A stretch of DNA of 64,000 bases from Rhynchopus sp. YZ270_cl-10 (GCA_964035575.1 OZ037839.1:682001-746000), one strand, 5' to 3'; shown: positions 2,755 through 51,105, counted from the first letter of the stretch. The notes: generated by a model from the letters alone, not told the origin. Numbers and translations: made by a program.

Positions 2755-3010
2755 TTACTTCTGCATGTCTGCCACATCATTCAGTGTGTTGGAGCCCGTT
2801 CTGTTCGTCACATCTATTCTGGAGGCATCGGCATCAACAGGTTGTTGCTCTGCTCCTGCATGCTGACGTGACTCTCCCATGTACTCCCATGTCGCACGCA
2901 TTGAGAGAAGTGTGTTGCGCAAGAGTTCCTTTTCTGCTGAATCTGTGCAATCAGTGAATCGCTGAATCAGTTCGTTCTGCACTTCCTCCTGCATGCTGAC
3001 AACTTCACGA
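2755..3010 (-). pseudogene. Frameshifted last 76-aa repeat of ankyrin/repeat module 1
   Basis: The frame of 3005..5305 stops at AAEVAIS*. The shifted frame continues REVVSMQEEVQ...LNDVADMQK*, matching the end of the paralog at 33787 (LHDVADLQK*). Confidence 0.7.
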
Positions 3011-5305
3011 AATGGCAACTTCAGCAGCAACAAGTGCAAGCTCCGGTGCGGAAAGGGACGTCGCCATGTGTTCCCAAGCAGCACGAATTGGTTCAAGTTT
3101 CTCGCGCAAGCGCTTCTTTGCTGCTGAATCCATTTGACTCAGTTCGCTGAGTGCTGCTGTGTTTGTCACATCTGCCTGGATGTCGGCAACGTCGGCATCA
3201 ACGACGCCACCTGCCTGATCCACTTCCTGCTCCACGCCTACCATAAGATAACGCACAGTCTCCGTGCCTCCCTCTTCCGCAGCAGTAATCAGACATGTCA
3301 CCTTCTGTATTTTGTGTTCTTTTCTGTCCCCTGCAGCAGCTTCAAAGTGCTGTGATAGCTCCTCGATATGTTCTGTGACACGCAGTTCCGCACCAGCTTC
3401 CACCAACAGATTCACAATGTCGCGGTCCACTCCCATGCACGCACAGACAAGAGGCGAAGGTCCTCTGTCGTCCCATTTCTCGATGCGTGCACCTGAATCA
3501 ATGAGCTCCTGCACCTTAGCTGCATATGATTTGGGGTAACGCGCTGCTGCATCGAAACGGATATTGCCATTGCCCTGTATATGCAGCCGTGCACCCGCTT
3601 CTAGCAACATCCTCACGATATGGACCTCACCCGCCCGACAAGCCATCATCAGAGGCGAACAGACCAACTCGCTCTTTGCTTCCACGTCTGCACCTGCATC
3701 AATGAGCAAGTGCATCACAGCTGCATGTGTGCTCCATACATGTAGGTCTGTACGTGGATCCGACTCAGCCTCATCATCAGTGAGTACCTCCACCACAGAC
3801 TCAGTGTCATTGTTCTCCACTGCGTGGTGCAACGCAGTCCAGTGCTTAGCATCAACGAGGTCCACACGCACCTCTGGCATGCACAGTAGGCTTTTCACAA
3901 TCGTCGTGAATCCACCAGCAGACGCAATCATGAGACATGTCTCGCCATCTGGGTCTCTTGCACCCACATCCGCACCTGCTCGAATCAGTACCTTCACAAC
4001 ATCATTCGCGTCTGACATACAACCCGACAACAGAGGCGAGCGCCCCAAGGAATCCTTTTTCTCGATGTCTGCCCCTGCATCAATGAGCACCTGCACCGTA
4101 TCTGCCTGGTTAAAGTGGTTTAGACCCACATCAGGCAGGTTTCCAGCAACTGCCTTGTGCAACGCAGTGCGTGCGTACTTCCCACCTACCTGATCCACAT
4201 CCACCTGCCCCAAGCTCACCAGATAGCGCACAGTCTCCGTGTGTCCCTTACGCGAAGCAACGATAAGACATGTTTCGGCGTCGGTGCGTGCTAGACGCAG
4301 GTCCGCACCAGCTTGAATCAACATTTTCACAATATCGAGGCACCCTGCAAAGCACGCAAGGAGAAGAGGCGTATGTCCATCAGAGTCCTTTTCCTCGATG
4401 TCTGCACCTGCATCAATGAGCACCTGCACCACATCTGCACGTCCTTCCTCCACTGCCTCGTGCAACGTAGAGTTGCTGTGGCTGCAATCAGTGAATCGCT
4501 GAATCAGTTCTTTCTGCACTTCCTCCTGCATGCTGACAACTCCACGAAGTGTGTTGGAGCTTGTTCTGTTTCTCACATCAGTTCTGTAAACATCTGCATC
4601 AACAGGTTGCTGCTCTGCTCCTGCATGCTGACGTGACTCTGCCATGTGTTCCCATGTCGCACGCATTGAGAGAAGTGTGTTGCGCAAGAGTTCCTTTTCT
4701 GCTGAATCTGTGCAATCAGTGAATCGCTGAATCAGTTCGTTCTGCACTTCCTCCTGCATGCTGACAACACCACGCAGTGTGTTGGAACCTGTTCTCTTTG
4801 TCACATCTGTTCTGGAAACATCAGCATCAACAGGTTGCTGCTCTGCTCCTGCACGCTGACGTGACTCTGCCTTGTGTTCCCATGTCGCACGCATTGAGAG
4901 AAGTCTGTTGCGCAAGAGTTCCTTTTCTGCTGAATCTGTGCAATCAGTGAATCGCTGAATCAGCTCTTTCTGCACTTCCTCCTGCATGCTGACAACTTGA
5001 CGAAGTGTGACAGCATCATCATCAACAAGTGCAAGCTCCGGTGCGGCAAGGGACGTCCCCATGTGTTCCCAAGCAGCACGAATTGGTTCAAGTTTCTCGC
5101 GCAGGTGCTTCTTTGCTGCTGAATCCATTTGACTCAGTTCGCTGAGTGCTGCTGTGTTTGTCACATCTGCCTGGATGTTGCGACATGTCTTGCCATCTCG
5201 GTCTCTTGCACCCACATCCGCACACCCCACAGACTCCTCGAAATGCTTGCTCTCCAGCTCGCTGGAAAGCTTTCGTGCGTAGAAGTCCCTGTAGCCTTGG
5301 GGAAG
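3005..5305 (-). CDS. Exon 2 of the TYW gene: TYW5-like C-terminus fused in frame to 76-aa repeats and ankyrin repeats (module 1)
   Basis: Acceptor TTTCTACAG at 5306 is followed by LPQGYRDFYARKL, typical of the TYW5 C-terminal helix (LPEEYRDFYARR). No stop intervenes before ADVGARDRDG..., the repeats and the ANK array. Confidence 0.75.
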   Translation of the reverse strand, partial: LPQGYRDFYARKLSSELESKHFEESVGCADVGARDRDGKTCRNIQADVTNTAALSELSQMDSAAKKHLREKLEPIRAAWEHMGTSLAAPELALVDDDAVTLRQVVSMQEEVQKELIQRFTDCTDSAEKELLRNRLLSMRATWEHKAESRQRAGAEQQPVDADVSRTDVTKRTGSNTLRGVVSMQEEVQNELIQRFTDCTDSAEKELLRNTLLSMRATWEHMAESRQHAGAEQQPVDADVYRTDVRNRTSSNTLRGVVSMQEEVQKELIQRFTDCSHSNSTLHEAVEEGRADVVQVLIDAGADIEEKDSDGHTPLLLACFAGCLDIVKMLIQAGADLRLARTDAETCLIVASRKGHTETVRYLVSLGQVDVDQVGGKYARTALHKAVAGNLPDVGLNHFNQADTVQVLIDAGADIEKKDSLGRSPLLSGCMSDANDVVKVLIRAGADVGARDPDGETCLMIASAGGFTTIVKSLLCMPEVRVDLVDAKHWTALHHAVENNDTESVVEVLTDDEAESDPRTDLHVWSTHAAVMHLLIDAGADVEAKSELVCSPLMMACRAGEVHIVRMLLEAGARLHIQGNGNIRFDAAARYPKSYAAKVQELIDSGARIEKWDDRGPSPLVCACMGVDRDIVNLLVEAGAELRVTEHIEELSQHFEAAAGDRKEHKIQKVTCLITAAEEGGTETVRYLMVGVEQEVDQAGGVVDADVADIQADVTNTAALSELSQMDSAAKKRLREKLEPIRAAWEHMATSLSAPELALVAAEVAIS

Positions 5306-5435: not shown

Positions 5436-8400
5436 GTTTTCAAGCATCGCGTGGACCTTGGCCATTGTCTTCTGCGCCTCCCCTGCGTGGATGAGGTCCT
5501 TGTTGCCGTAGATATCGTTCTTCTCGTACACCTCCTTGGGAAGATGCTTCCACATGATGTTCACTGAGATGGACGCATCCTGCGCCCACGTGGTGTGGAA
5601 CCACAGTGCAGGGATGAAGAGTGAGTCGCCAGGCTGCAGCAGCACATGCCTCCCCTTTGCTAACGCCTTGTTCACGAGGGGGTAGGCCTTGAGGTCACAC
5701 GACGTCACATCGCCTGCCAACGACGAGCTTCCATCAATGTACAAATTCTGAACCTCCTCCGGCGGGAACAAAATAACGTGCTTCACCCCAGACACCTGAA
5801 ACAGCATTCCATCTGTGATGTCATAGTGACACCAAGTGATCACATCCTTCGAGGAAACCCGCAGGGCGCTAGAGAACAACCCTTCGTCATCAAGCGTTCG
5901 CTGTAAAAATCCTGGTGCCTTAAAGTCGTCTGCCACTTCAGGCATGGTGTCCCAGAAGTTTGCAGGGTCTTTCCTCATGTTTTTCCCGACGGAACGGAAG
6001 AAAAGGTATTCTGAGTGGTTTTCGCTGAGGATTGTGCCCTTCAGGAGCTCGGAAAACGTCATGGCCTTGAAGCTGTAGTTTCTGGGGTGGAAGGTGAGTT
6101 CGGGTTGCTTGCAGACCCCGACGCTGACCTGCTTCTCGCCTATCTTCTCCTTTAGGTAGTCTGGTGTCCACTTCGCGAAACACTCTCCGAAGTCGCATTT
6201 CATGACGACTGGCTGCCGTTTTTTGTATATGTTTGCCCACTGCGCAAAGGTCGGATGGTTCACACGAACAACCGCATCACACTGCTTCCCAACGGAAGAG
6301 AACCCCTTCCCCGAAGCGCTCGAAGAGTCGAGATACGCAATTCTGGGCTTATTCAAGAAGGTCCCGTACGTCGAGCACTGTGCACCCCCACCCATGATCA
6401 GGAAGGTGCGCGGTTGGAATGGCACAATCAAATGTCTCGTGAGAAGCATCGAGTTGCCCCCACCGCCTTCTGTCACCGGGACGTCGGTGACAACCTGTTT
6501 GAAGCTGACTTTGTCGCCAATGAGGTCGAAAATGATGAGATATGCATCAGAGTCACCAACACCTCCGGTACGTTCCTGCAGAGAGGACCCCCCGACAACA
6601 AGAAGCGCGTCATCTGCTGGTGCTGTCGCATGGCTCATTCTTGGTGGAGGTGCCCAGCCTGTTCCGGAATGCTCGACTGCTCTCCATGATAGGATCGCCA
6701 CCTGGAACACCCAGACGTCGGAGAGCAGTGCAGTCTCCCCTTGGCCACCGTGCAGCACAATGTCACCAGAATTCATTTTTGTTAATGTTGCGGAGTGGCG
6801 GGGCTGCGGCGACGCCTTTCCTTCCCAGGTCAACTCCCGCCAGGATTTGGTTTCAACAGAATACACCCAGGTGTCCGCCAGGAACCCTTCCGCCATTCCT
6901 CCAAACAAAAGCGCCTCGCTCTCCCCCAAGGATGCCATACAATGCCGTTGACGAGGTCCCGGGCAGACAGATGGGGCAGCCTCAACCTCAGCATCACCCT
7001 CAGCCTCTGTGTTCTCCTCACTCGACCACACCAAGCTGTTCACATGAAGAAGATAAATCTGTTTACTACAGAGCTCCCCCTTCAGAGTCACCCCTCCATG
7101 CAACAGCATGTAGTCCCCTGCCATAGCTGCGGCATGGTAGTGCCGTTCTACAGGCACGTTCCCGGAGGGGGTCTCATAATTTCTCAGCACCTTCGGAAGG
7201 GAAAGGTCGATAATGGTGAGCCCCCCTTCCCCATACACATAGGCGGCGTATAGTCTACTGTGAGCACCTTTTGAGAGGATGGTTGGTTGGCAGGTTACCA
7301 CTGTGTGGCTCATTCCCAAGCAAAAATCGCCGAGTTTGCGGAGGAAATGCATTCTTGAGACTTGTTGTGAAGAAAGTGGAGCCGATTTTTCGGTAAGAGT
7401 TGCCGCAGTAGTAGTAAGAGTGGTGTTTGCGGAGGAGTAGGAGAAGAGCACTGCGTGGAGGAGTGATTCTGTTAGGTCCTCCCAGTCGCCTATTGGCTGG
7501 ATTGCGGTGATCCGTTCCATTTCTTCTTTATCAGCAAGAAGGTCTTGGAGGAGGGAGTACGGTGATGCAGAAACTACGCCGGTGGAGGCGAGCTGCTCCC
7601 TCAAGCGTTCTCCAACCTTCGCGACAGAAGGGAAGTTGTGTACTGAAAGAAGCGGTCTTCCTGCCTGCTCTGCAACCGCAGTCACAATACCACCGTATGT
7701 GTCCTGAGGATAAACATCGTCCCACCCAATCACATCTACCGGAGACCCCTCCGCAATCACCTTAATCCTCTCCAACAACACTGCACCACGCTCCACAGAC
7801 ATCGCAGACAACACCGAATCCAAAACAAACAGATATCTGCAGGGAAGCTCTCCGTCACTCCCTGCAAGCTGTTCAAGAGCCTCGGGGAGGTCTGCCAGAC
7901 TCTCGGCCTGCATGGTACTATACACCGATTCTGGGATTCCTGAGTACATCTGCGCACGCTTCTCTACGACCGACGCTTCATCAATGTCAACGAAGGAGAC
8001 ACCAGGGGGGGTTGCTGCAGCCTCTTCCCTTTCCTCATGCTCCTCTGCTTCGGGTTCCTTTTCCATGGAGGAGTCTTCTTGAGCGGGGAGGGGTGGGTCG
8101 CTTGCATCGGGTGTGTCAGTGTCGATGTCAGAATGGTCACCTTCTGTCTCTGGGTTGGAGGTGTGCTGTGCGTCCTCGATGGGGGAAGTGTTGGTGGTTG
8201 CTGTGGTGTTGAGTGTAGGGTCTGCTTCGGGGTCGTTCTGTTCAGGTTCAATGGAGATAGCAACTTCGGTTGCTTCGGTTGGAGGTGCATGTTGCGCAGC
8301 AAGGCTAAGGAGCATAGAGTCAAACCCACACCCAACACACGCCACAACAGCTTTTCCTGGCACATCCCGCGCCATCCATTCTTCAATCCCTTTGACAATC

Positions 8401-9020
8401 CGTTGTGCCTTCATAAAATGAAGAAGCTGCGAATGAGAGGGTTTGTAACTACTCAAATTCGGTGCCGCAGTGTCCACCCGCCCCTTTGAGGCACGGCGTG
8501 TCTTCATTGTGTCATCTAAGGCAGGGTCGGATCCGTGGTGGCTTCCTTCTTCTGCGTTGATAGTTCCGTTCATTGAGTGGTGGGCAATGAATTGGTCAGC
8601 GTAGACTGTAGGTAACACCTTCTCTTTGGAACGGAGGTACCCTTTTGCACAGCCCTCTGAGAACGCTAGGGCACGGTCGTATAATACAGAGTGGTGCGCG
8701 TTGTTGCTGGGGGCAGGGGCAGGTTTGTCTACCCCAGCTCCAGGACCTCTTCTGTTGACTACACCAGGAAGGGATCGTTTGCCTGTAGTAGGGGTGCATT
8801 TCTGTGGCATAGGGGATGCCTGACGGACACGAGAGTTTTTCGGTACAGCAAGCCTCGCAATGGTGCTTTGTGTTGCCTTTGGTGGGGCTGCCCCGGAGGC
8901 AATTGTAGGAGCATTCACAGCAGATCCCGCACCTGCCTTCGCTGCAGGCACAGCAGCAGATGGGGTCGTGGCCATCGGTGTCTTGGCCACGGGGAACTTG
9001 TACCCCCTTGTGGGAATCAT
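5436..9020 (-). CDS. TYW4: tRNA wybutosine-synthesis protein: LCM methyltransferase + kelch (TYW4/PPM2) + JmjC hydroxylase (TYW5), exon 1
   Basis: SAM motif VGCGFDS; kelch repeats (RHYHAA, LLHGG, RQRHCM, LLFGG, RHSAT, RMSHA); JmjC with WCHYD, LQPGDSLFIPALWFH and DIYGNKDL. Phase-0 intron 5435..5306 (GTATAT...CTACAG). First ATG at 9020 follows a pyrimidine tract and CAG. Confidence 0.85.
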
Positions 9021-9995
9021 GCCGCCACCCTTACCTACCCTAAAGAAGTAGCCAAGCACTGAAGGGTGATGGTGGGGAGGAGGAGGAGGAGGAGGAGGGG
9101 GGAGGAGAGAGGGAAGAGGGAAGGAAAATAGAAACTTATAGACTCATCACACGAGAACCCCCATCCTTTTTTTACAAAGGATTCAACCTTACCCCTTCCG
9201 AAAATACAAAACCAATTCAAAGCGCTACCCGGGAAGGCAAATGGATGCTCGCAGCACTGGACATCCTTGCATCGTGGCGGGTAGAGGAGACATGTAGTGA
9301 GGATACCATTGCGGGGGTGGTGGTGAGGATGATGGAGGTAGGGCTGGTTCCGTACTGCACAGGAACCTGCGTTGCTTCCTCGGTCTGTGTCGCTGCATAC
9401 TCCTGCCTGACACGAAGGTGCACACCTGCAACGACAGTCGGTCCGTCTGGCACTACCTCTACAGAGACCCGTCGCACCACTAGCAGGGACGGGCGACAGC
9501 GGTGTGTAGTGCTCACCCTGAGGCTCTGGTCGTTGCTGCTGTCCCATGTCCATGCATAGCTTCTCACGTGGATGGTTGCAACGAAGTTCTCGTTCTGTGA
9601 TGTGAGTAAGTTTGGATGTGCAACACGTCACCCATTCCCACCCAACAATACCACATGCATTGGTCTCGCTGTGCACAAGAAAGGACGCATTGCATGAGGT
9701 CTTCATTACCGACAAAAACCATACCTGAGACAACGGCCTGCAGCAACGCTTGAGCACACCCCACATCTCTTGGATCTGTTCTGTGCTGTGTGCAGTGTTC
9801 TCCACATTAGTCGTTGCTGCGACCAGGAGACAGCAGAGCATCACTACTGAGGGGGGGAACTCACAGAGTACGAGACATTGCGGTAGATAAGGTCCAAGGC
9901 TGCGGGAACAAACTCCCCGTACACTGCACCTGCGAGCACCTCCGCAGAGCACGGTACTAGCTCGTAGAAGCGCCGCTTAGCCAGAACAATTGCAC

Positions 9996-12818
9996 TCAGC
10001 AGATTCCACATTGCGACGACGTGGGTGTCGAAATCACCACAGGTTGCTGCTCTGCTCCTGCATGCTGACGTGACTCTGCCATGTGATCCCATGTCGCACG
10101 CATTGAGAGAAGTTTGTTGCGCAAGAGTTCCTTTTCTGCTGAATCTGTGCAATCAGTGAATCGCTGAATCAGTTCGTTCTGCACTTCCTCCTGCATGCTG
10201 ACAACCCCACGCAGTGTGTTGGAGCCTGTTCTGTTTGTCACATCTGTTCTGGAAACATCGGCATCAACAGGTTGTCGTTCTGCTCCTGCATGTTGACGTG
10301 ACTCTGCCATGTGTTCCCATGTCGCACGCATTGAGAGAAGTTTGTTGCGCAAGAGTTCCTTCTCTGTTGAATCTGTGCAATCAGTGAATCGCTGAATCAG
10401 TTCTTTCTGCACTTCCTCCTGCATGCTGACAACTTGGCGAAGTGTGTTGGAGACTCTTCTGTTTGTCACATCTGTTCTGGAAACATCGGCATCAACAGGT
10501 TGTTGCTCTGCTCCTGCATGCTGACGTGACTCTGCCATGTGTTCCCATGTCGCACGCATTGAGAGAAGTTTGTTGCGCAAGAGTTCCTTCTCTGTTGAAT
10601 CTGTGCAATCAGTGAATCGCTGAATCAGTTCTTTCTGCACTTCCTCCTGCATGCTGACAACTTGGCGAAGTGTGTTGGAGGCTCTTCTGTTTGTCACATC
10701 TGTTCTGGAAACATCGGCATCAACAGGTTGTTGCTCTGCTCCTGCATGCTGACGTGACTCTGCCATGTGTTCCCATGTCGCACGCATTGAGAGAAGTTTG
10801 TTGCGCAAGAGTTCCTTCTCTGTTGAATCTGTGCAATCAGTGAATCGCTGAATCAGTTCTTTCTGCACTTCCTCCTGCATGCTGACAACTTGGCGAAGTG
10901 TGTTGGAGACTCTTCTGTTTGTCACATCTGTTCTGGAAACATCGGCATCAACAGGTTGTTGCTCTGCTCCTGCATGCTGACGTGACTCTGCCATGTGTTC
11001 CCATGTCGCACGCATTGAGAGAAGTTTGTTGCGCAAGAGTTCCTTTTCTGCTGAATCTGTGCAATCAGTGAATCGCTGAATCAGTTCTTTCTGCACTTCC
11101 TCCTGCATGCTGACAACTTGACCAAGTGTGACAACTTCAGCAGCAACAAGTGGAAGCTCCGGTGTCATGTGTTCCCAAGCAACACGAATTGGTTCAAGTT
11201 TCTCGCGCAAGCGCTTCTTTGCTGCTGAGTCCATTTGACTCAGTTCGCTGAGTGTTGCTGTGTTTGTCACATCTGCCTGGATGTCGGCAACGTCGGCATC
11301 AACGACGCCACCTGCCTGATCCACTTCCTGCCCCACGCCTACCATAAGATAACGCACAGTCTCCGTGCCTCCCTCTTCCGCAGCAGTAATCAGACATGTC
11401 ACCTTCTGTGTTTTATGATTTTTTCTGGTCCCTGCAGTAGCTTCAAAGTGCTGTGATAGCTCCTCGATATGTTCTGTGACACGCAGTTCCGCACCAGCTT
11501 GCACCAACAGATTCACAATGTCGCGGTTCTTTCCCATGAATTTACAGACAAGAGGCGAAGGTCCTCTGTCGTCCCATTTCTCGATGCGTGCACCTGAATC
11601 AATGAGCTCCTGCACCTTAGCTGCATATGATTTGGGGTAACGCGCTGCTGCATCGAAACGGATATTGCCACTGCCCTGTATATGCAGCCGTGCACCCGCT
11701 TCAAGCAACATCCTCACGATATGGACCTCACCCGCCCGACAAGCCATCATCAGAGGCGAACAGATCAACTCGCTCTTTGCTTCCACGTCTGCACCTGCAT
11801 CAATGAGCATCTGTATCACATCTGCATGGTTTAGCTGACGGATGCTTCCCAGTGTGTGGTGCAACGCAGTCCAGTGCTCAGCATCAACGAGGTCCACACC
11901 CACCTCTGGCATGCACAGAAGGCTCTCCACAATCGTCGTGAATCCTTCAGCAGACGCAATCATGAGACATGTCAGCCCATCTCGGTCTCTTGCACCCACA
12001 TCCGCACCTGCTCGAACAAGTACCTTCACAACATCATTCGCGTCTGAGAAGCAACCGAGCAACAGAGGCGAATACCGCATGCCATTCTTTTTGTCGATGT
12101 CTGCACCTGCATCAATGAGCACCTGCACCACATCTGCATATGCTTCCTCTGCTGACCTGTGCAAGGCAGTGTTTGCGTCCGGACCACCTACCTGATTCAC
12201 ATCCACCTGCCCCAAGCTCACAAGATAGCGCACAGTATCCGTGTGTCCCCCACATGAAGCAGCGAGAAGACATGTGTCGCCGTTGTCGTTTGTGACACGC
12301 AGTTTCGCACCAGCTTGCACCAACACCTTCACAGTGTCGAGGCACCCTCTCGAGCACGCATGGAGAAGAGGCGTACGTCCTTCAGAGTCCTTTTTGTCGA
12401 TGTCTGCCCCTGCATCAATGAGCACCTGCACCGCGTCAACATGGTTTTGGCGCACTGCCTTGTGCAACGCAGTGGACTTGTGACACCCACCTAGCTGATT
12501 CACATCCACCTGCCCCAAGCCCACAAGATAGCGCACAGTCTCCGTGTGTCCCTCGCGCGAAGCAACGCTAAGACATGTGTTGCCGTCGTTGTCTTTGACA
12601 CGCAGTTTCGCACCAGCTTGCACCAACACCTTCACAATATCGAGGCACCCTTCCTTGCACGCAAGGAGAAGAGGCGTATGTCCTTCAGAGTCCTCTTCCT
12701 CGATGTCTGCCCCTGCATCAATGAGCACCTGTACCAGATCTGGATGCTTTAGATCCACTGCCTCGTGCAACGTAGTGTTGCTGTGGTTGTCTGCGCCTTG
12801 CACATGTTTGTTGCCCAT
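9996..12818 (-). CDS. Ankyrin-repeat protein with about five tandem 76-aa repeats (module 2)
   Basis: 940-aa ORF with a long ANK array (TPLLLAC, TALHKAV, DAGADI) followed by 228-bp tandem units. Confidence 0.85.
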   Translation of the reverse strand: MGNKHVQGADNHSNTTLHEAVDLKHPDLVQVLIDAGADIEEEDSEGHTPLLLACKEGCLDIVKVLVQAGAKLRVKDNDGNTCLSVASREGHTETVRYLVGLGQVDVNQLGGCHKSTALHKAVRQNHVDAVQVLIDAGADIDKKDSEGRTPLLHACSRGCLDTVKVLVQAGAKLRVTNDNGDTCLLAASCGGHTDTVRYLVSLGQVDVNQVGGPDANTALHRSAEEAYADVVQVLIDAGADIDKKNGMRYSPLLLGCFSDANDVVKVLVRAGADVGARDRDGLTCLMIASAEGFTTIVESLLCMPEVGVDLVDAEHWTALHHTLGSIRQLNHADVIQMLIDAGADVEAKSELICSPLMMACRAGEVHIVRMLLEAGARLHIQGSGNIRFDAAARYPKSYAAKVQELIDSGARIEKWDDRGPSPLVCKFMGKNRDIVNLLVQAGAELRVTEHIEELSQHFEATAGTRKNHKTQKVTCLITAAEEGGTETVRYLMVGVGQEVDQAGGVVDADVADIQADVTNTATLSELSQMDSAAKKRLREKLEPIRVAWEHMTPELPLVAAEVVTLGQVVSMQEEVQKELIQRFTDCTDSAEKELLRNKLLSMRATWEHMAESRQHAGAEQQPVDADVSRTDVTNRRVSNTLRQVVSMQEEVQKELIQRFTDCTDSTEKELLRNKLLSMRATWEHMAESRQHAGAEQQPVDADVSRTDVTNRRASNTLRQVVSMQEEVQKELIQRFTDCTDSTEKELLRNKLLSMRATWEHMAESRQHAGAEQQPVDADVSRTDVTNRRVSNTLRQVVSMQEEVQKELIQRFTDCTDSTEKELLRNKLLSMRATWEHMAESRQHAGAERQPVDADVSRTDVTNRTGSNTLRGVVSMQEEVQNELIQRFTDCTDSAEKELLRNKLLSMRATWDHMAESRQHAGAEQQPVVISTPTSSQCGIC

Positions 12819-13647
12819 GTGTGTCGTTGCTGTGTCTTATGTTGTGTGTCTGTCAGTGGTGGAGTGACGTTACTCTTTGTGAAGAGGTGTGTGGATAGAG
12901 GAGAGGATAAGCACCCGGCATCACGCAGTATAGCTTCACTGTGCAACTGCAGTGAAGGACGCCTCCAAATGAGATGTGCGTTCTTCGGGTTATTTCATGA
13001 GTCTTTAGGTAAATGTTGGGTAAAATTCATATCGGCACCGAAACTTTAGGGAACCATAAGGAGGGAACCGGGAAACTGGTTCCCTGTTCCCCTAAGATTC
13101 TCCTCCTGTGAGGTGAAAGGTGAAAGGACTTGGACCCTCGACAGTTTTAGAACCAGCTCCTGTTCCTCAGGCGCGCGACAAATAGTGAATGTTGTTTTTT
13201 TGTTGTGTAGACAATCGCCGAGTAATCCCACCAGGTAGGAGAATTTGGGTCTGTACTCAATATTGGCCGAAGCCTTTGTACTACGGAAGGTATAGACGTC
13301 GTTCGTCCTGAACCCTTAAGAGCAACTTTTAGGATGAAAAGAACCTTCAAAGGGGTAGTCCGCATCAAGGTGTTGTACACCAATGCACGGCTACATGCTA
13401 AGAAGGGGGTGTTGGAGGTTACAGTTAATAAACTGCCCTCTTTTCAAAAGTGGAAAGGTAGAGGTGGGTATACAGCAGATTTCTATTTTTTTGCAATAAC
13501 CCTCTGTGACACATTTTACGCCCCCATCCCCCTCTCCTGAAAGATTTGTCAGTATGGAAAAACAAACAAAACTATCAAAGAACACTTTCCCTTTATATTT
13601 TCCAATTTTTTTATTTGCCAAAAGAATGCAGAAAAAAAATAGTAGAG

Positions 13648-19924: not shown

Positions 19925-20000
19925 ATTTAAAACAAAAAAAAATCACCCCCAGAAATAAGGAGGCCTGTCAAAGGAATGATGGGGGGGGGGGGGGGGGGGT

Positions 20001-41473: not shown

Positions 41474-42200
41474 TTAAGCGAACCCTCCAGGGTGGGATCT
41501 ACCAGAAATCAACTGGTCGTCGGAGCAGGGCGGAACGAACGCAGGATCCGACGAGACGATATCGTAGTGTACGACCAACTCTAGGAGCAGTGTGTTGGAG
41601 ACTGTTCTGTGCCTACCTGATTCACATCCACCCCCAAGCCCACAAGATAGCGCACAGTCTCCGTGTGTCCCCCACCCGAAGCAGTGATAAGACATGTGGC
41701 GCCGTTGGTGTCTGTGACACTGAGGTCCGCACCAGCTTGCACCAACACCTTAACACTGTCGAGGCTCCCTGCAAAGCACGCAAAGAAAAGAGGCGTATGT
41801 CCAGCAGAGTCCTTTTTTTCGATGTCTGCCCCTGCATCAATGAGCACCTGCGCCGTATCTGCCTGGTTTAGATCCACTGCCGCGTGCAACGCAGTGCGTG
41901 CGTACACCTACCTCATCCACATCCACCTGCCCACCCTCACGCACCTTCTGCTTTCTCGTCTTTCATTTCAGTGTCGTCGTCCTCATCCTCACGCATGTCG
42001 GCCATGAGCTTCACCCATGCCTCCTTGAAATGAGGATCTGCAGTGCCTGGTGTCTGTGCTGCCTGCTCAGCTTCGTCGATGAACTCAATCACGTCTGTGG
42101 GTTTGTGTTGAGAAGGGACAGAGGGAAGATGATCAGTGGGGTACATACCTTTCTGTACAGGCTCTTCGTTTGGGTGGCTTGTGGAAGATGCAGATCTGTG
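41474..42200 (-). pseudogene. Truncated ankyrin-family remnant joined out of frame to an unrelated acidic exon
   Basis: One 3-ANK block nearly identical to ~35575-35890, preceded by a segment encoding ...EAWVKLMADMREDEDDD in another frame and followed by family 3' flank sequence. Confidence 0.65.
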
Positions 42201-42334
42201 TGAAGGGAAATTGGAAGATTTAAAAATAATTTTTAAAAACAAAATCATTGCGGGCAATTGATTGCAAACTTTCAAAATCTTAACGTACACTCTCTGTTGA
42301 TTCTAAAACGGGGGAGGGTAAAAAAGGCGTGAAA

Positions 42335-43189
42335 CACGTATGGCAAATGATAATATATTATGCGCTATTATGAGATCTCATAATACATGTGATATTATGC
42401 GCTATTATGTGCTATTATGTGCTATTATGTGCTATTATGCGCTATTATGCGCCAATTATGCGGCGTTATGCGCTCATTATGTGCCGTACCCCCCACCCCC
42501 CCACCCAAAAAAAGTCGCTCAGAAGTGGTCAAAAGTGCCCAAAACCGGGCGGAATTCGATTTTTGGGGTACAAATGGGCCTATGGTGTGGTTTTTATTGA
42601 CTTCAGGGGGGTTTCTTTGATTTATTACCTACTTCACGTTTTTTGACGGCTTAAGATACCTTGGGTGGGAAAACCTTTGGTACCAGGTGCTTGACACTTT
42701 TTGAAACATGGTTCTAAGTTCCACCAAGTCCCTCTAAACACCCCGAAACCGCCTGGGTACCCCTCGGGATAGGTTCTGGGGTGAAAATATGTGGCTTTGG
42801 GGGCTTTTCTGGCCCCTGGCTCACACTGAGGCGTGATGGATGTGTGAGTTGCTCTATCTACGAGGGGTGGGCAGGTACAAGTTGTATGTACATTTTTGAA
42901 AAAAGCAGATACGGGGCTTCTTGAGGCTCAAAACTGCTCAAAACCGGGCGCAGATGGATTTTTGGACATCTGAGGGTGGTATTTTCTGGTTTGGGGCATT
43001 GGGGTAGGGCACATAATGAGCACATAATGAGCACATAATAGCGCATAATCATTATGCGCTATTATGTGCTATTATGTGCTATTATGCGCTATTATGCATT
43101 ATGCGATTATTATGAGCGCGCATAATAGCGCATAATGATCTCATAATTTATTATGAGATCTCATAATAAATTATCATTTGCCATACGTG
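42335..43189. mobile_element. TIR element with 6-bp TSD (GTGAAA) and 10-bp subterminal repeats
   Basis: CACGTATGGCAAATGATAAT ... ATTATCATTTGCCATACGTG; (CTATTATGYG)n; carries ~110 bp shared with the 20001 foldback. Confidence 0.8.
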
Positions 43190-43273
43190 GTGAAAGGTAA
43201 ATTGGGGAAGAGGTTGAAAAGTTGGAACGCTTCCTCACCCCAGATCACACCATATGTCACAAGTGTCATGTCA

Positions 43274-44463
43274 CAGGGTTTCCGCCAAGGGGGACCGGGG
43301 GGGACCCCCCCAATATTTTTCCCAGAAAAATCCGGATTTTTACAGGGGTTTGGGGGGGACCATGGCCCCCCCCAAGAAAAATGGGGTTTTGGAGGTTGTA
43401 GATGATCCCCCGTGGTCATGCGACCCCACCGTGCAGAGCATTTGGCTCGCTGTGCCAGAAGAAGTGGAAGAAAAAGGGGGTGGTGCACAGTCTGCAGACT
43501 AAGGATTGGGGGGTCGGGTAAGTAATTAATTAAATGGCTAGTCTGCACGGGGTTTCGTAACCAACAATACAGGCGAAAACGCCGTTATTTGCATTTTTGA
43601 GCCAATCCCAGTCAGTGGTGGGGTCAATCTGGAAAAATGGACAAAATTTTAATGACTTAAATTTTGGACAATATGAGCCCGGTCACTAATAGCTGGGGCC
43701 GATTTTCGGCCAAAAATTTCCTCAAAATCCGGGTTTGTAATATTGACTTCACCTTCGGTTACCCTACAGCGGGGGGTGAAGGAAGGTTGTGGAAAAGGGT
43801 CCTTATTTGCATTTTTGGGATCCGCCCGTGCAGTGGTGGGGTCAATCTCGAAAATTGGACAATTTTTTGACCACTTAAATTTTGAAAAATATGAGCCCGG
43901 TCACTAATACGTGGGGCCATTTTTCAAAAATATCGGGGTGGTATGGTAAGTAATTAAATGAAAAAATTAGTCTGCAGTCTGGTGGTGCAATCTTTTTAAA
44001 AAAGGGTAAAAGTAGCGTACCGTGCGCCTGCGGCGCTGTGTTGCTAGCTATGTGATATTGATATACTTCCATCGATACTTCCGTGCATTGCCCCTTTTTC
44101 TAAGGAGGCTTCGGTGCAAGGGACGGGTAGTTATTACATGTTCCCACTGCGGCACTGTAATGACTGTAGCACCATACAATAGAAAAAGCAACACCATCAC
44201 CCTCCACTCTCACAGGACCCCTTACCTTGTTAAGCTTCCACCCCCGACCTCCAAACAAACCACCTCTACCAGACACACAGCTGTGAAGCTTGACATGGCT
44301 GCTATCAAACCTGGTGCACCCTTCGCCTCTCCACTCTGTGGCCTGCAGGGAGGCGCGCGCGAAGCGCGCGACGACCGCTTTTGCGGGGAGAAAAATTTTT
44401 TTGGGGGGTCTTTTTGATGGTCCCCCCCAATTCCTGAAACCCCAAATCCTGGCGGAAACCCTG
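43274..44463. mobile_element. TIR element CAGGGTTTCCGCCA with 5-bp TSD (TGTCA)
   Basis: CAGGGTTTCCGCCA ... TGGCGGAAACCCTG with TGTCA on both sides. It contains a ~215-bp duplicated repeat that is also seen inverted at ~63615-63734. Confidence 0.75.
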
Positions 44464-44553
44464 TGTCACCGAAAAAAAAAAAAAAAGGACGGATATCCTC
44501 GCTCCTTTTCCCATTTCCCTAGCATACCCAGAGGCGGAACCCTCAGCGTTCTT

Positions 44554-47500
44554 CTACACATCAGGGATAGTCTGCGAGGCCGGTGGCGGGCGGCCCTTTC
44601 TCTTCTTCATCACGAGCGGACCGACGGGCTGGTTCTGCCGCACGGTCTTGACCTCCACGACTGCGGACACGGGTTCGGGCTTGGGCTCGTGGCTGGGGAT
44701 CACGACGTCTTTGAGCCAAGGCATTTTTGCACCTTCGAGTGCACTGGGGCGGTAGGTGGGCTCGTTGCACATAAGGTCACGCACGCACTCGAGTGCCTCG
44801 ATGGGGACGGTGCCTTGCGCGGTGCTGGGGAACACAACACCGTCGGACATCTTGTGCTTCAGGTCCTGCAGCCTGCGTGTGCGCTCCTCCTGTGTGCGCC
44901 GCATGGGCTGGCGTGTCTGGTACGGCAGCTTCCCGGTCAACATCGCGTACGAGATGACACCGGCCGCGTAGACGTCTACCTTGTGCAGCTTGCTGCGTGA
45001 CGACAGGTAGGAGCGGTTGCCCTCCAGAATGCCGCACACACTCTCAAGCGCGAGGTACAGGTCTGCCCCGCACGGCGTGCAAGCAACCATCGGAGAAGAG
45101 CAGATGGACCCACCCGCATGCAAGTCGTGTGGCTGCGGCATGTTCGGTGCAGGGCTCTGCGGCAGCAGGTCCAGCCCCTGCATCGCGCCTCGTGGGCCAT
45201 GGTACTTCGCAAGGCCAAAGTTGATAACCTTAATGTGGTAGTCGGACCGGTCAATCAGAATGTTCTCCGGCCTGATGTCGCGATGCACAACAAAGTTGCC
45301 ATGAACGAAGTCGAGCGCAAGGAGAAGCTGCTTGAGGATGACCGCCGCCACGTCTGGCTGCAGCTTGCGGTTCTCGCGGATGAAGTGGTAGAGCTCGCCG
45401 CCCTGGCAGAGCTCCATGACCATGTAGATGGTATCGTTTGTGTGCACCACTTCGTACAGGCGGATAATGTTCTCGTGTTTCAGGTGCTTCAGCACTGCGA
45501 GCTCTACGAAGACGTGCTTGAGGGACTTTTGCGACGTGCATACGCGACGCTTCTCTATGGCCTTGATCGCAAGGGGGCCTGCAGGGACGTGCCCCAGGTG
45601 TTTCAGGTCCTTCTTCTCGTACCGCCGCACGATCCCGCACGACCCGCGCCCGAGCAGGCCAGGGTCCTGATCACCATCGACCGCAATCAGGTTGTACTCC
45701 TCCTCGATGTCGCCTAGCTTCCGCGCGTAGGGCTTGCCGGTCCCATCATGCTTCCCGAGACGCGTGTCAATATCTTTGATATCTGCCTCCAAGCAAACAG
45801 TCTCCGTGTGTCCCTGATGCGCAGCAATGATAAGACACCTTCTGGAAACATCAACAGGTTGCTGCTCTGCTCCTGCATGTTGACGTGACTCTGCCATGTG
45901 TTCCCATGTCGCACGCATTGAGAGAAGTTTGTTGCGCAAGAGTTCCTTTTCTGCTGAATCTGTGCAATCAGTGAATCGCTGAATCAGTTCTTTCTGCACT
46001 TCCTCCTGCATGCTGACAACATCGCGCAGTGTGTTGGAAGCAGTTCTGTTTGTCAAATCTGTTCTGGAAACATCGGCATCAACAAGTTGCTGCTCTGCTT
46101 CTGCATGCTGACGTGACTCTGCCATGTGTTCCCATGTCGCACGCATTGAGAGAAGTGTGTTGCGCAAGAGTTCCTTTTCTGCTGGGTCTGTGCAATCAGT
46201 GAATCGCTGAATCAGTTCCTTCTGCACTTCCTCCTGCATGCTGACAACTCCACGAAGTGTGTTGGAACCTCTTGTGTTTGTCACATCTGTTCTGGAAACA
46301 TCGACATCAACAGGTTGCTGGTCTGCTCCTGCATGCTGACGTGACTCTGCCATGTGTTCCCATGTCGCACGCATTGAGAGAAGTGTGTTGCGCAAGAGTT
46401 CCTTTTCTGCTGGGTCTGTGCAATCAGTGAATCTCTGAATCAGCTCTTTCTGCACTTCCTCCTGCATGCTGACAACTCCACGAAGTGTGTAGGAGTCTCT
46501 TGTGTTTGTCACATCTGTTCTGGAAACATCGGCATCAACAGGTTGCTGCTCTGCTCCTGCATGCTGACGTGACTCTGCCATGTGTTCCCATGTCGCACGC
46601 ATTGAGAGAAGTGTGTTGCGCAAGAGTTCCTTCTCTGCTGAATCTGTGCAATCAGTGAATCGCTGAATCAGTTCTTTCTGCACTTCCTCCTGCATGCTGA
46701 CAACCCCACGCAGTGTGTTGGAGACTGTTCTGTTTGTAACGGAAACATCGGCATCAACAGGTTGTTGCTCTGCTCCTGCAGGCTGACGTGACTCTGCCAT
46801 GTGTTCCGCATCACCGTCCCAGTTCAACACAGGGGTGAAGGTGTCGTCACCCTGCGTCACCTCCAACTTCACATTCGACAGATGCTTTGTGTTCAAGGTA
46901 AAGTCCCAGGCACGGTGGTTCAGCACCAAATCCATTACACATTCCGCACGGAAGGTCTTCGTAGCAACGTCAGGGTCAATGCGGAGGCGGGTGTTTAAAG
47001 GGCACATCACCTGCGATGCGTCTGACGCCGTTCTTGGGTCCGTGGCCCAAGAGAAGTCACCGTTTTCGATGTTGTTCCCTTCTTGGTGCACTTCCTCCTG
47101 CATGTCTGCCAATTCACGCAGTGTGTTAGAACCTATTCTGTTTGTCACATCAGTTCTGGAAACACCAACATCAACAGGTTGCTGCTCTGCTCCTGCATGC
47201 TGACGTGACTCTGCCATGTGTTCCCATGTCGCACGCATTGAGAGAAGTTTGTCTGTGGATGGCCGTCCTTCAAACTTTTCAAGGTTCTTATCACATTCGG
47301 AGAACCCCACAGTCTGCTTCAACTCGGCAAATGAGAGAAGCTTTTCATGCGGATGGACGTCGGTCTTGAGCATCTCCAAGGCTTCTTTCATTGCACGGGC
47401 AGCTGCTGAGAGGAGAGTCACAGAGTACATCGCGATGTTGAAACCCATCTCCTCAAACCTCGACGGAGGCAGAAGTGGGGTTGACCCGGACTCGATGAGG

Positions 47501-50500
47501 TTTATCATTTTGTACCCCTTGACTTCAGCACATACCCTCGCCATTTCTACCTCGGTACCAGGCGCCTCGATGAAACAGATTTCTGCACCCAATTCATAGA
47601 AAAGGTTGGCACGGATGATCGCCTCATCAATACCATGGGTGCTACAGCTGTCCGTGCTTGCCACTATGACGAGGTCTTGCCCTCTGTCACGCAATGCGTC
47701 ACGCGCCTCACAAACATCACGCATCCGCTGAACTGCCTTATCACGTGAGATAACTGCCTTCCCTTTAACATGGATGCTACGTTTTGACGCGATTCGGTCA
47801 TCAACCATGATTCCTGCAAACCCTGCCTGCGCATATCCGGCAACCGTACGTTGTGCGGACAGCGCATTCCCAAACCCGGTGTTCGCATCGCCGATGACAG
47901 GGATGTTCACAGCAGCGCACGTACTGCGTCCTTGGTCAAGCATCTCGCCATAAGATATGAGTCCTGTGTCGGGAACACAGAGGCGAGCTGCGGAGACGCT
48001 GAAGCTACTCATCTGCGCTACCTCAAACCCAGCGTTCTCAATCAAACGCGCGCTGAACGCATCAAAGCAGCACGGCATCCGGTTCAACTTCCCAGACGCG
48101 AGCAGCGCACGCAGCTTATCCGCCGGGGTGCATGTGTTCATTGCAGGGACTTCCTTTCGAGACATTGTACAATCAGTGAATCGCTGAATCAGCTCTTTCT
48201 GCACTTCCTCCTGCATGCTGACAACTTGACGAAGTGTGTTGGAGCCTGTTCTGTTTGTCACATCTGTTCTGGAAACATCAACATCAACAGGTTGCTGGTC
48301 TGCTCCTGCAGGCTGACGTGACTCTGCCATGTGTTCCCATGTCGCACGCATTGAGAGAAGTTTGTTGCGCAAGAGTTCCTTTTCTGCTGAATCTGTGCAA
48401 TCAGTGAATCGCTGAATCAGTTCGTTCTGCACTTCCTCCTGCATGCTGACAACTCCACGCAGTGTGTTGGTGACAACTTGACGCAGTGTGTTGGAGTTAG
48501 TCGTATTCGTCACATCAATTCTGGAAACATCAACATCAACAGGTTGCTGCTCTGCTCCTGCATGCTGACGTGACTCTGCCATGTGTTCCCATGTCGCACG
48601 CATTGAGAGAAGTGTGTTGCGCAAGAGTTCCTTCTCTGCTGAATCTGTGCAATCAGTGAATCGCTGAATTAGTTCGTTCTGCACTTCCTCCTGCATGCTG
48701 ACAACTCCACGCAGTGTGTTGGAGCCTGTTCTGTTTGTCAAATCTGTTCTGGAAACATCGGCATCAACAGGTTGCTGCTCTGCTCCTGGATGCTGACGTG
48801 ACTCTGCCATGTGTTCCCATGTCGCACGTATTGAGAGAAGTTTGTTGCGCAAGAGTTCCTTTTCTGCTGAATCTGTGCAATCAGTGAATCGCTGAATCAG
48901 CTCTTTCTGCACTTCCTCCTGCATGCTGACAACTTGACGAAGTGTGTTGGAGCCTGTTCTGTTTGTCACATCTGTTCTGGAAACATCAACATCAACAGGT
49001 TGCTGGTCTGCTCCTGCAGGCTGACGTGACTCTGCCATGTGTTCCCATGTCGCACGCATTGAGAGAAGTTTGTTGCGCAAGAGTTCCTTTTCTGCTGAAT
49101 CTGTGCAATCAGTGAATCGCTGAATCAGTTCGTTCTGCACTTCCTCCTGCATGCTGACAACTCCACGCAGTGTGTTGGTGACAACTTGACGCAGTGTGTT
49201 GGAGTTAGTCGTATTCGTCACATCAATTCTGGAAACATCAACATCAACAGGTTGCTGCTCTGCTCCTGCATGCTGACGTGACTCTGCCATGTGTTCCCAT
49301 GTCGCACGTATTGAGAGAAGTTTGTTGCGCAAGAGTTCCTTTTCTGCTGAATCTGTGCAATCAGTGAATCGCTGAATCAGTTCTTTCTGCACTTCCTCCT
49401 GCATGCTGACAACTTGACGAAGTGTGTTGGATCCTGTTCTGTTTGTCACATCTGTTCTGGAAACATCAACATCAACAGGTTGCTGCTCTGCTCCTGCATG
49501 CTGACGTGACTCTGCCATGTGTTCCCATGTCGCACGCATTGAGAGAAGTGTGTTGCGCAAGAGTTCCTTCTCTGCTGAATCTGTGCAATCAGTGAATCGC
49601 TGAATTAGTTCGTTCTGCACTTCCTCCTGCATGCTGACAACTTGACGAAGTGTGACTTCAGCAGCAACAAGTGGAAGCTCCGGTGCGGAAAGGGACGTCG
49701 CCATGTGTTCCCAAGCAGCACGAATTGGTTCAAGTTTCTCGCGCAAGCGCTTCTTTGCTGCTGAATCCATTTGACTCAGTTCGCTGAGTGCTGCTGTGTT
49801 TGTCACATCTGCCTGGATGTCGGCAACGTCGGCATCAACGACGCCACCTGCCTGATCCACTTCCTGCTCCACGCCTACCATAAGATAACGCACAGTCTCC
49901 GTGCCTCCCTCTTCCGCAGCAGAAATCAGACATGTCACCTTTTGTATTTTGTGTTTTTGTCTGGTCCCTGCAACAGCTTCAAAGTGCTGTGATAGCTCCT
50001 CGATATGTTCTGTGACACGCAGTTCCGCACCAGCTTCCACCAACAGATTCACAATGTCGCGGTTCTCTCCCATGCACGCACAGACAAGAGGCGAAGGTCC
50101 TCTGTCGTCCCATTTCTCGATGCGTGCACCTGAATCAATGAGCTCCTGCACCTTAGCTGCATATGATTTGGGGTAACGCGCTGCTGCATCGAAACGGATA
50201 TTGCCATTGCCCTGTATATGCAGCCGTGCACCCGCTTCTAGCAACATCCTCACCATCAGGACCTGACCCGCCCGACAAGCCATCATCAGAGGCGAACAGA
50301 CCAACTCGCTCTTTGCTTCCACGTCTGCACCTGCATCAACGAGCAAGTGCATCACAGCTGCATGTGTGCTCCATACATCTGTACGTGGATCCGACTCAGC
50401 CTCATCATCAGTGAGTACCTCCACCACAGACTCAGTGTCATTGTTGTCCACTACGTGGTGCAACGCAGTCCAGTGCTCAGCATCAACGAGGTCCACACCC

Positions 50501-51105
50501 ACCTCTGGCATGCACAGAAGGCTTTTCACAATCGTCGTAAATCCACCAGCAGACGCAATCATGAGACATGTCTCGCCATCTCGGTCTCTTGCATCCACAT
50601 CCGCACCTGCTCGAACCAGTACCTTCACAGCATCATTCGCGTATGAGTTGCAACTAAACAGCAGAGGCGAGAGCCCCATGGCATCCTTTTTCTCAATGTC
50701 TGCCCCTGCATCAATGAGCACCTGCACCACATCTGCATGGTTTTTACCAAGTGCCGCGCACAACGCAGTTGTTTCGTACTGCCCACCTACCTGATCCACA
50801 TCCACCTGCCCCAAGTCCACAAGATAGCGCACAGTCTCCGTATGTCCCCCACGCGAAGTAGCGATAAGACACGTGTCGTCGTTCTTGTCTGTAACACGCA
50901 CTTCCGCACCAGCTTGCACCAACACCTTCACAATGTCGAGGCACCCTTCCATGCACGCAAGGAGAAGAGGCGTACGTCCATCAGAGTCCTTTTCCTCAAT
51001 GTCTGCCCCTGCATCAATGAGCACCTGCACCACATCTGCACGTCCTGTCTCCACTGCCTCGTGCAACGTAGTGTTGCTGTGGCTGCCTGTGTGTGGCCCA
51101 GACAT
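44554..51105 (-). CDS. Chimeric ankyrin - 76-aa repeats - ICL/PEP-mutase domain - aminopeptidase-like fragment - Ser/Thr (pseudo)kinase protein (module 4)
   Basis: Single open frame of more than 2100 aa. Likely ATG at 51105, by analogy with module 2. PEP-mutase/ICL-like domain ~48165-47251; CAMK-like kinase ~45790-44554. Confidence 0.85.
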   Translation of the reverse strand: MSGPHTGSHSNTTLHEAVETGRADVVQVLIDAGADIEEKDSDGRTPLLLACMEGCLDIVKVLVQAGAEVRVTDKNDDTCLIATSRGGHTETVRYLVDLGQVDVDQVGGQYETTALCAALGKNHADVVQVLIDAGADIEKKDAMGLSPLLFSCNSYANDAVKVLVRAGADVDARDRDGETCLMIASAGGFTTIVKSLLCMPEVGVDLVDAEHWTALHHVVDNNDTESVVEVLTDDEAESDPRTDVWSTHAAVMHLLVDAGADVEAKSELVCSPLMMACRAGQVLMVRMLLEAGARLHIQGNGNIRFDAAARYPKSYAAKVQELIDSGARIEKWDDRGPSPLVCACMGENRDIVNLLVEAGAELRVTEHIEELSQHFEAVAGTRQKHKIQKVTCLISAAEEGGTETVRYLMVGVEQEVDQAGGVVDADVADIQADVTNTAALSELSQMDSAAKKRLREKLEPIRAAWEHMATSLSAPELPLVAAEVTLRQVVSMQEEVQNELIQRFTDCTDSAEKELLRNTLLSMRATWEHMAESRQHAGAEQQPVDVDVSRTDVTNRTGSNTLRQVVSMQEEVQKELIQRFTDCTDSAEKELLRNKLLSIRATWEHMAESRQHAGAEQQPVDVDVSRIDVTNTTNSNTLRQVVTNTLRGVVSMQEEVQNELIQRFTDCTDSAEKELLRNKLLSMRATWEHMAESRQPAGADQQPVDVDVSRTDVTNRTGSNTLRQVVSMQEEVQKELIQRFTDCTDSAEKELLRNKLLSIRATWEHMAESRQHPGAEQQPVDADVSRTDLTNRTGSNTLRGVVSMQEEVQNELIQRFTDCTDSAEKELLRNTLLSMRATWEHMAESRQHAGAEQQPVDVDVSRIDVTNTTNSNTLRQVVTNTLRGVVSMQEEVQNELIQRFTDCTDSAEKELLRNKLLSMRATWEHMAESRQPAGADQQPVDVDVSRTDVTNRTGSNTLRQVVSMQEEVQKELIQRFTDCTMSRKEVPAMNTCTPADKLRALLASGKLNRMPCCFDAFSARLIENAGFEVAQMSSFSVSAARLCVPDTGLISYGEMLDQGRSTCAAVNIPVIGDANTGFGNALSAQRTVAGYAQAGFAGIMVDDRIASKRSIHVKGKAVISRDKAVQRMRDVCEARDALRDRGQDLVIVASTDSCSTHGIDEAIIRANLFYELGAEICFIEAPGTEVEMARVCAEVKGYKMINLIESGSTPLLPPSRFEEMGFNIAMYSVTLLSAAARAMKEALEMLKTDVHPHEKLLSFAELKQTVGFSECDKNLEKFEGRPSTDKLLSMRATWEHMAESRQHAGAEQQPVDVGVSRTDVTNRIGSNTLRELADMQEEVHQEGNNIENGDFSWATDPRTASDASQVMCPLNTRLRIDPDVATKTFRAECVMDLVLNHRAWDFTLNTKHLSNVKLEVTQGDDTFTPVLNWDGDAEHMAESRQPAGAEQQPVDADVSVTNRTVSNTLRGVVSMQEEVQKELIQRFTDCTDSAEKELLRNTLLSMRATWEHMAESRQHAGAEQQPVDADVSRTDVTNTRDSYTLRGVVSMQEEVQKELIQRFTDCTDPAEKELLRNTLLSMRATWEHMAESRQHAGADQQPVDVDVSRTDVTNTRGSNTLRGVVSMQEEVQKELIQRFTDCTDPAEKELLRNTLLSMRATWEHMAESRQHAEAEQQLVDADVSRTDLTNRTASNTLRDVVSMQEEVQKELIQRFTDCTDSAEKELLRNKLLSMRATWEHMAESRQHAGAEQQPVDVSRRCLIIAAHQGHTETVCLEADIKDIDTRLGKHDGTGKPYARKLGDIEEEYNLIAVDGDQDPGLLGRGSCGIVRRYEKKDLKHLGHVPAGPLAIKAIEKRRVCTSQKSLKHVFVELAVLKHLKHENIIRLYEVVHTNDTIYMVMELCQGGELYHFIRENRKLQPDVAAVILKQLLLALDFVHGNFVVHRDIRPENILIDRSDYHIKVINFGLAKYHGPRGAMQGLDLLPQSPAPNMPQPHDLHAGGSICSSPMVACTPCGADLYLALESVCGILEGNRSYLSSRSKLHKVDVYAAGVISYAMLTGKLPYQTRQPMRRTQEERTRRLQDLKHKMSDGVVFPSTAQGTVPIEALECVRDLMCNEPTYRPSALEGAKMPWLKDVVIPSHEPKPEPVSAVVEVKTVRQNQPVGPLVMKKRKGRPPPASQTIPDV

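Follow-up and report, generated by a model that had tools for sequence, protein, structure and literature searches.

In plants, the NLR proteins with integrated domains (NLR-IDs) of the MIC1 clade fuse one scaffold clade to many unrelated domains, the cargo keeps its introns, parental copies survive and a clade-specific motif adjoins the fusion site; for the grass members, ectopic repair has been proposed as the route (PMC5819176). The ankyrin (ANK) ORFs of Bodo saltans virus are tandem and recently duplicated, carry fragments of catalytic genes of their own genome, and have been proposed, there too as a hypothesis, to act as decoys (PMC5871332). Fungal HIC sensors of the HET-E/HNWD type have repeats that are almost identical except at a few hypervariable positions under positive selection, and these repeats are gained, lost and exchanged (PMC13449251). 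Repeat shuffling together with diversifying selection is also found in the brown-algal LRR-ROCO proteins, a candidate immune family outside plants and animals (PMC11378527).

Here we describe a family of ANK proteins from Rhynchopus sp. YZ270_cl-10 encoded in a 64,000-nucleotide stretch of DNA, the whole of which was analysed and is referred to as the window. The family works like NLR-IDs, HIC sensors and the Bodo saltans virus ANK fusions and is a member of none of them, because it has no NTPase and is not viral. With the MIC1 clade it shares the fusion of one scaffold to diverse domains and intron-bearing cargo with surviving parents, and its 76-aa repeat is the counterpart of the motif at the MIC1 fusion site; however, NB-ARC and LRR are absent, the sensor-like part is ANK, several cargos per gene occupy N-terminal, internal and C-terminal sites, and a bait function is putative (PMC5819176). 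Tandem duplication and catalytic fragments recall Bodo saltans virus, whereas here the genome is cellular and intron-bearing, cargos are often whole domains, the 76-aa repeat is the main landing site and selection at the binding face was measured (PMC5871332). The repeats resemble those of HIC sensors in similarity and variability, but NACHT/NB-ARC and cell-death domains are lacking and foreign domain capture is added (PMC13449251); unlike in LRR-ROCO proteins, there is no ROC-COR GTPase and the repeats are not separate exons (PMC11378527).

We propose, with a probability of roughly 0.55, that this is a lineage-restricted tandem family in which ANK faces are positively selected and the repeats capture genes in frame, likely by ectopic repair, the products likely being variable binders whose cargo is probably mostly tolerated passengers and in a minority possibly baits. 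The best reading is that the repeats of an NTPase-less ANK binder family are a hotspot of rearrangement and gene capture, and for it we take the anatomy, the selection pattern, the intron-bearing cargo, the sister copies, the degenerate catalytic motifs and the frame bias as demonstrated.

The window is eukaryotic, with GT-AG introns and cellular neighbour genes, and these features, together with the absence of any relative of the repeat from the viral contigs searched, speak against a giant-virus origin. Every ORF with a convincing Pfam match (LRR, TYW4/5-type, IQ, EF-hand, EML and the ANK modules) lies on the minus strand, a unidirectional, intron-bearing layout like that of the Diplonema papillatum genome (PMC10161547). 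With genes laid out on a single strand, any deletion that joins neighbours gives a sense-sense fusion. Elsewhere in the window lie two perfect palindromes, one at 20770-21518 / 21546-22294 (749-nt arms, 100%, 27-nt loop) and a second at 59654-60217 / 60345-60908 (564-nt arms, 100%, 127-nt loop) just upstream of the EML gene, as well as a perfect (TACTG)x91 array (62653-63107) and a (CCCAGGTA)x17 array (14008-14139).

Units of the family follow one order: a shared 5' flank is succeeded by triple-ANK units of 101 aa, of which there are one to several, then by a conserved ANK cap with linker, and finally by a run of 76-aa repeats. The triple-ANK arrays have a 303/306-bp period with unit matches of 82-83%, and the 228-bp arrays encoding the 76-aa repeat reach 91-97% matches in four of five arrays, that at 48166-49654 being interrupted by 252-bp units; the window holds 28 repeat anchors, and the repeat units are individually distinct. 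The original prediction of four ANK plus 228-bp-repeat modules and a remnant, with shared ANK core and repeat DNA, was borne out, the remnant being frameshifted; module DNA common to the copies is 85-96% identical, and the open frames at 9996-12818, 33787-39984 and 44554-51105 were confirmed. AlphaFold, run on three repeats with no alignment, predicted a two-helix hairpin for each, with low-confidence linkers and no confident packing between repeats (pTM 0.31), and the modelled repeat had no Foldseek match at E 0.001. Weak Pfam, NCBIfam and PADLOC matches of the repeat to XRCC4_CC, DUF5770, TetR_C_19, UDP-glucose dehydrogenase, PDC-M20A and JAB were rejected as noise summed over many copies, and an Rfam search returned no match.

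No Pfam match to NB-ARC or NACHT was found in four window ORFs or ten outside members, nor was the tripartite effector-NTPase-repeat architecture seen in this set; a Walker A motif occurs in one of 20 proteins, within the cargo of the outside member P0013, and no NTPase domain was found in the scaffold. A signalling or executioner domain was likewise not found.

Module 1 has a TYW4/5-type gene as its N-terminal partner (LCMT-Kelch-JmjC, a combination that we take to be TYW4/5 by name). Its exon 1 lies at 5436..9020 on the minus strand, as does everything described below unless noted, with Pfam matches to Kelch and Cupin_8, and its last exon (5305-5224) opens the stretch 2756..5305, which continues with an ANK scrap, linker, 76-aa repeats and an ANK block. 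The in-frame capture of this gene, claimed for the module 1 ORF itself, is not found there and holds only once a phase-0 GT-AG intron of 130 nt (5435-5306) is spliced, which brings the gene into the module 1 frame and leaves 1961 aa open. At the end of the module, a 2-bp frameshift near 3012 leads to a stop at 3005, and the repeat tail reaches its natural stop at 2756. The TYW4/5 motifs look intact, and this cargo may be the resident gene itself. Directly downstream of module 1, an LRR protein with an apparent signal peptide (3-1793, minus strand) runs off the window.

Module 2 (9996..12818) comprises an ANK block, the conserved ANK cap with linker and five 76-aa repeats. At its 3' end lies a seventh insert, missing from the original list, which is foreign, out of frame from 10040 and interrupted by apparent GT-AG introns (9550..10040, lower border approximate); it had no match in Pfam or NCBIfam.

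Module 3 consists of two tandem ANK-linker-repeat units ending at a natural stop (33787..39234), to which the C-terminus of a complete MAPK gene is fused (39235..40873). The MAPK identity stood, and the gene runs from its own ATG to its natural C-terminal end, but its frame joins that of the module only after splicing of two introns (40648-40220 and 40015-39940), giving 2193 aa. The cargo keeps Lys, HRD and DFG, has a degenerate Gly loop and carries Ser in place of the TxY Thr; among the codon differences listed, one is synonymous and four are nonsynonymous. Within a repeat unit of module 3 sits a clean 485-bp insert (36704..37188), and a 2-bp deletion 13 nt downstream brings the frame back. 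The insert had been called a CysRS-like fragment, of which a CysS_C anticodon-binding-like domain was found (Pfam E 0.004, NCBIfam E 5e-6, Atlas 0.79) and nothing beyond that domain.

The scaffold of module 4 (45796..51105: ANK block, linker, 76-aa repeats) encloses two internal cargos and ends in a third. The first is a whole ICL/PEP-mutase-family coding sequence from its ATG (47257..48165), the family being confirmed by a domain match and by comparison with solved enzymes, against which Gly, Asp, Glu, the Cys and Gly of KxCGH and the Arg of ARTD are changed. The Gly is presumably that of the oxyanion hole, and we take Asp and Glu to be metal-binding. About six of 16 active-site motif residues, a set chosen from recall, have changed while the fold remains alignable (P 0.002 against the background rate and 0.04 against a neutral one), with 16 synonymous and 12 nonsynonymous codon differences among those listed. 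Its open frame is not significant on its own (P 0.12-0.35), and the same applies to other cargos taken singly. The second internal cargo, 91 aa with predicted beta strands (46808..47079), had been labelled M1-aminopeptidase-like, a label that found no support in Pfam, NCBIfam, PDB sequence or Foldseek; its model is beta and of low confidence (pLDDT 48.5, no Foldseek match). Against its multi-copy sister, about 95% identical, the codons listed differ synonymously at four places and nonsynonymously at one, which suggests that it is coding in that frame.

The third cargo is a kinase (44554..45795) with degenerate catalytic-loop, DFG and APE motifs; Pfam Pkinase upheld the kinase part of the earlier CAMK-like assignment, CAMK being a putative subfamily label, and a comparison with PDB at E 1e-35 gave no match. 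The catalytic-loop Lys is changed to Arg, the DFG Asp to Asn and the APE Pro to Leu, with five synonymous and ten nonsynonymous codon differences among those listed, whereas other copies of the kinase keep the catalytic-loop Lys and have a sense codon where the cargo has its stop at 44556. The ICL/PEP-mutase and CAMK-like cargos have lost catalytic residues that the sister copies keep where visible. The kinase cargo appears to extend beyond its stop through an intron and more exons (putative, 41937..42195, based on splice motifs, with no Pfam match) to an untranslated ANK remnant with a 5-bp deletion (41612..41941), out of frame behind the putative last exon. Lying in the putative downstream intron, a highly repetitive 2.2-kb insert (42274..44479, unstranded; joint 42273 to 44480) with 10-bp sub-repeats is missing from another copy of the kinase gene in four of four runs, and four letters fit either side; it is likely a non-autonomous mobile element.

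Whether parental copies of the cargo exist had been raised with the original prediction, and sister copies were found for the PEP-mutase, kinase and M1-like cargos, in DNA runs X1, X2 and X4 from two studies. Contigs of five of 11 sequencing runs were compared, with X6, where depth over the repeat is close to zero, and X7, which has a single contig there, set aside for low coverage. For the PEP-mutase cargo, window-identical contigs occur alongside a sister contig that is 6-9% diverged (about 91-94% identical) at similar depth in X1, X2 and X4; the window-identical and sister contigs show 0 versus 16 differences at 47596-47830 in all three runs and 0 versus 9 at 47427-47568 in X1 and X4. Among the positions listed, Gly and Asp, both lost from the cargo, are retained in the sister, which is also the sole copy among the contigs listed at about 47993-48090 in X1, X2 and X4. 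It departs from the window sequence beyond 48172 and 47257, aligning 7 nt beyond the ATG into the junction, which is consistent with microhomology. Sisters of the kinase and M1-like cargos are covered about 2 to 14 times as deeply as single-copy-like contigs, by a factor that varies with the run, and depth is not equivalent to copy number; cargo depth in general differs between runs, and the contigs do not resolve alleles. One X4 contig leaves the M1-like cargo and continues for 17 nt in repeat DNA, and no short-read contig among those listed spans a junction with 31 letters on each flank. Capture took place at the DNA level, with introns for TYW4/5 and MAPK and with a retained sister copy for the PEP-mutase, kinase and M1-like cargos. 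Retrocopy capture of TYW4/5 and MAPK is ruled out by their introns, but it may account for the three internal inserts, which are intronless.

Beyond the window, searches with linker-repeat regions (14, 3 and 2 proteins) and the 50% library (11) matched the 76-aa repeat to 20 distinct proteins only, four of them from the window; the 19 from the linker-repeat queries are singletons on at least seven contigs, presumably of a common assembly. Domain capture is real and family-wide: foreign segments of at least 90 aa occur in 11 of the 16 outside members and are absent from the other five, and nearly all of this cargo differs, a 32-aa piece being common to P0004 and P0009 only. The outside members are gene-caller ORFs, which hide out-of-frame inserts and some of whose tails may come from reading through introns. 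P0008 carries a kinase above the Pfam cut-off; below it are Argonaute N and L1 in P0016 and a P-loop GTPase in P0013, the latter with a PADLOC LeoBC match (E 1e-7) and no match in PDB. Without domain matches, we take the tail of P0009 to be cyclase-like and a piece of P0010 to be kinase-like. In P0016, a Gly-Lys-rich leader and the Argonaute N-terminal region are fused 3' of the repeats and the ORF ends as if at an intron; a fusion to full-length Argonaute is possible. Several members (window 12818, P0002, P0007, P0015) begin Met-Gly-Asn, a possible N-myristoylation signal, and others Met-Ser-Gly.

The ANK units at 35303-35903 and 38308-38908 have a depth a few hundred times that of single-copy-like contigs in three runs, from which the ANK family probably extends well beyond the 20 proteins found. 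The metagenome and viral contigs searched with the repeat held no relative, an Atlas search with it gave no usable match, and the literature searched, mostly without subscription papers and with the supplements of PMC5871332 and PMC10161547 outside its coverage, contained no account of this family.

The original prediction read six in-frame captures as evidence against purely random rearrangement. Nine of 11 cargo-module junctions are indeed in frame (P=0.0014 at one third, in a window picked for such a pattern), but most had to be so merely for the scaffold to be translated: internal inserts must be sense and in frame because the downstream repeats would otherwise be untranslated, and N-terminal partners must be in frame because they supply the start codon. 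The eight internal and N-terminal junctions therefore reflect selection for scaffold translation, not for cargo function. Only C-terminal ends test the latter, since the scaffold gains nothing from their frame; classed by eye, one of two in the window and seven of 15 family-wide are in frame (P=0.20 at one third, 0.007 at one sixth).

This result bears most directly on the proposal of true integrated-decoy receptors, in which the dead enzymes would be selected effector baits and the ANK and hairpin scaffold would hold or report an effector without an NTPase switch. Such NTPase-independent decoy immunity in a free-living protist, with ANK sensors on a hairpin-repeat landing pad that sample host genes, inactivate them and display several per protein, is a tentative reading that we consider rather unlikely; the displayed cargo would be candidate bait for viral or endosymbiont effectors. 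A number of cargos comprise entire domains with their natural ends at the joint, the PEP-mutase has lost active-site residues with its fold still alignable, and the outside cargo includes the Argonaute N-terminus and the P-loop GTPase with the LeoBC match; intron-bearing cargo with surviving sister copies also parallels NLR-IDs (PMC5819176). However, the C-terminal fusions are not in frame above one third, which leaves the decoy role originally suggested a putative one, hardly any cargo is common to different members, and it includes housekeeping enzymes without a known effector link. The missing signalling or executioner domain adds to this, and active-site loss also fits relaxed selection or detoxification (removal of harmful activity).

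To measure selection on the scaffold itself, binding-face positions of the ANK repeat were set in advance (2, 3, 5, 13, 14 and 33), and we take them to correspond to the positions that DARPin libraries randomise. In a set of 27 ungapped triple-ANK units, those with indels having been dropped by pattern, entropy is 2.06 bits at the binding face versus 0.58 elsewhere (P 2e-7), and 1.94 versus 0.55 in the 19 non-window units alone. A codon model of the eight window ANK units gives omega 4.6 for the binding face versus 0.79 (P 7e-12), a contrast that holds with the face's own synonymous rate (P 4e-5). A tree-free count of single-step changes at the face finds 33 nonsynonymous and two synonymous (Poisson P 4e-5; none of 100000 random sets of columns reached this excess), and in the closest pair of units four of seven differences fall at the binding face, which makes up 14 of 85 positions. 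The triple-ANK units thus combine high similarity with hypervariable surface positions under positive selection, and on these codon and entropy patterns their binding face is under diversifying selection, although gene conversion among units can inflate omega. The suggestion of a variable recognition scaffold without NB-ARC/NACHT gains direct support in this respect. Framework omega (0.79) indicates weak constraint. Scaffold frames stay open, whereas module DNA that is not translated carries indels of 5, 2 and 1 bp; pairwise DNA indel counts in the hypervariable ANK parts were fragmented and were excluded as a statistic.

A largely silent repeat array, in which ORFs stay open only through youth and homogenisation of copies and the fusions are functionless, is improbable in our assessment. 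It would account for a dN/dS of 1.1 in the conserved ANK-linker core (five copies, no significant amino-acid constraint), for the 76-aa repeat (22 units), where pairwise dN/dS is 0.47 and the variant ratio of 0.62 (P 0.18) makes constraint not significant, and for the frameshift, premature stop and remnant; Diplonema papillatum offers a precedent of repeat arrays with untranscribed ORFs (PMC10161547). It does not explain an omega that exceeds 1 at specific sites while the synonymous rate is not raised, the 0 stops in 183 scaffold variants where 6.2 were expected (P 0.002), or the in-frame junctions with a compensating deletion.

Flanking DNA bears on a selfish gene-capturing transposon of Pack-MULE or Helitron type, which we regard as very unlikely. 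The shared 5' flank at 51106..51299 is 96% identical to 12819-13007 (modules 2 vs 4), part of it recurs 3' of module 3, and the spacer 3' of module 3 recurs 5' of module 4, as expected for a tandem array unit. A decayed His-rich 3' tail (33414..33594) is common to 9211-9335 and resembles the translated tails of P0004 and P0010. Dispersal over at least seven contigs, cargo depth that differs between runs and capture at the DNA level would suit a transposon; yet the units stand head-to-tail with common spacers, no inverted arms occur at module borders, the 25 longest of 92 inverted pairs included, and no transposase, helicase or reverse transcriptase was found in the 25 window ORFs scanned. The claim of a selfish unit therefore gained no support, there being no terminal repeats and no transposase in the DNA covered, and a passive carrier would not show binding-face selection. 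Assembly chimeras at the repeats are the least probable explanation, for while the lack of full junction bridging and a gap in the coverage by window-identical contigs at the 5' end of the PEP-mutase would fit misjoins, these would not yield in-frame fusions with active-site-biased changes, and the window-identical cargo contigs beside diverged sisters at similar depth, the 17-nt link from M1-like cargo to repeat DNA and the distinct repeat units all argue against them.

For the tandem family of variable binders that we favour, we envisage that the 303-bp and 228-bp repeats would drive unequal crossing-over, producing tandem units and changes in repeat and copy number. Breaks in the array might sometimes be mended on a foreign template that offers short microhomology, or closed by a deletion reaching into a neighbour on the same strand, and selection would retain products whose scaffold stays translated, while captured enzymes would keep their fold and lose catalysis. 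The ANK face may follow fast-changing ligands, most plausibly of viruses or endosymbionts, and an immune role of the family is suggested by analogy.

The recognition of viruses and intracellular bacteria by single-celled eukaryotes is a largely open field. In this family, two traits typical of arms-race receptors occur together, a hypervariable binding face and host domains captured repeatedly, while the NTPase by which NLRs are defined is absent. Should the cargos be baits, a list of them would name the host proteins attacked by parasites, and decoy integration would have evolved anew on a scaffold unrelated to that of NLRs. Should they be passengers, the family would give an unusually clear view of the birth of chimeric genes and pseudoenzymes, and with donors only 2-9% diverged, each step of that birth would be datable and testable.
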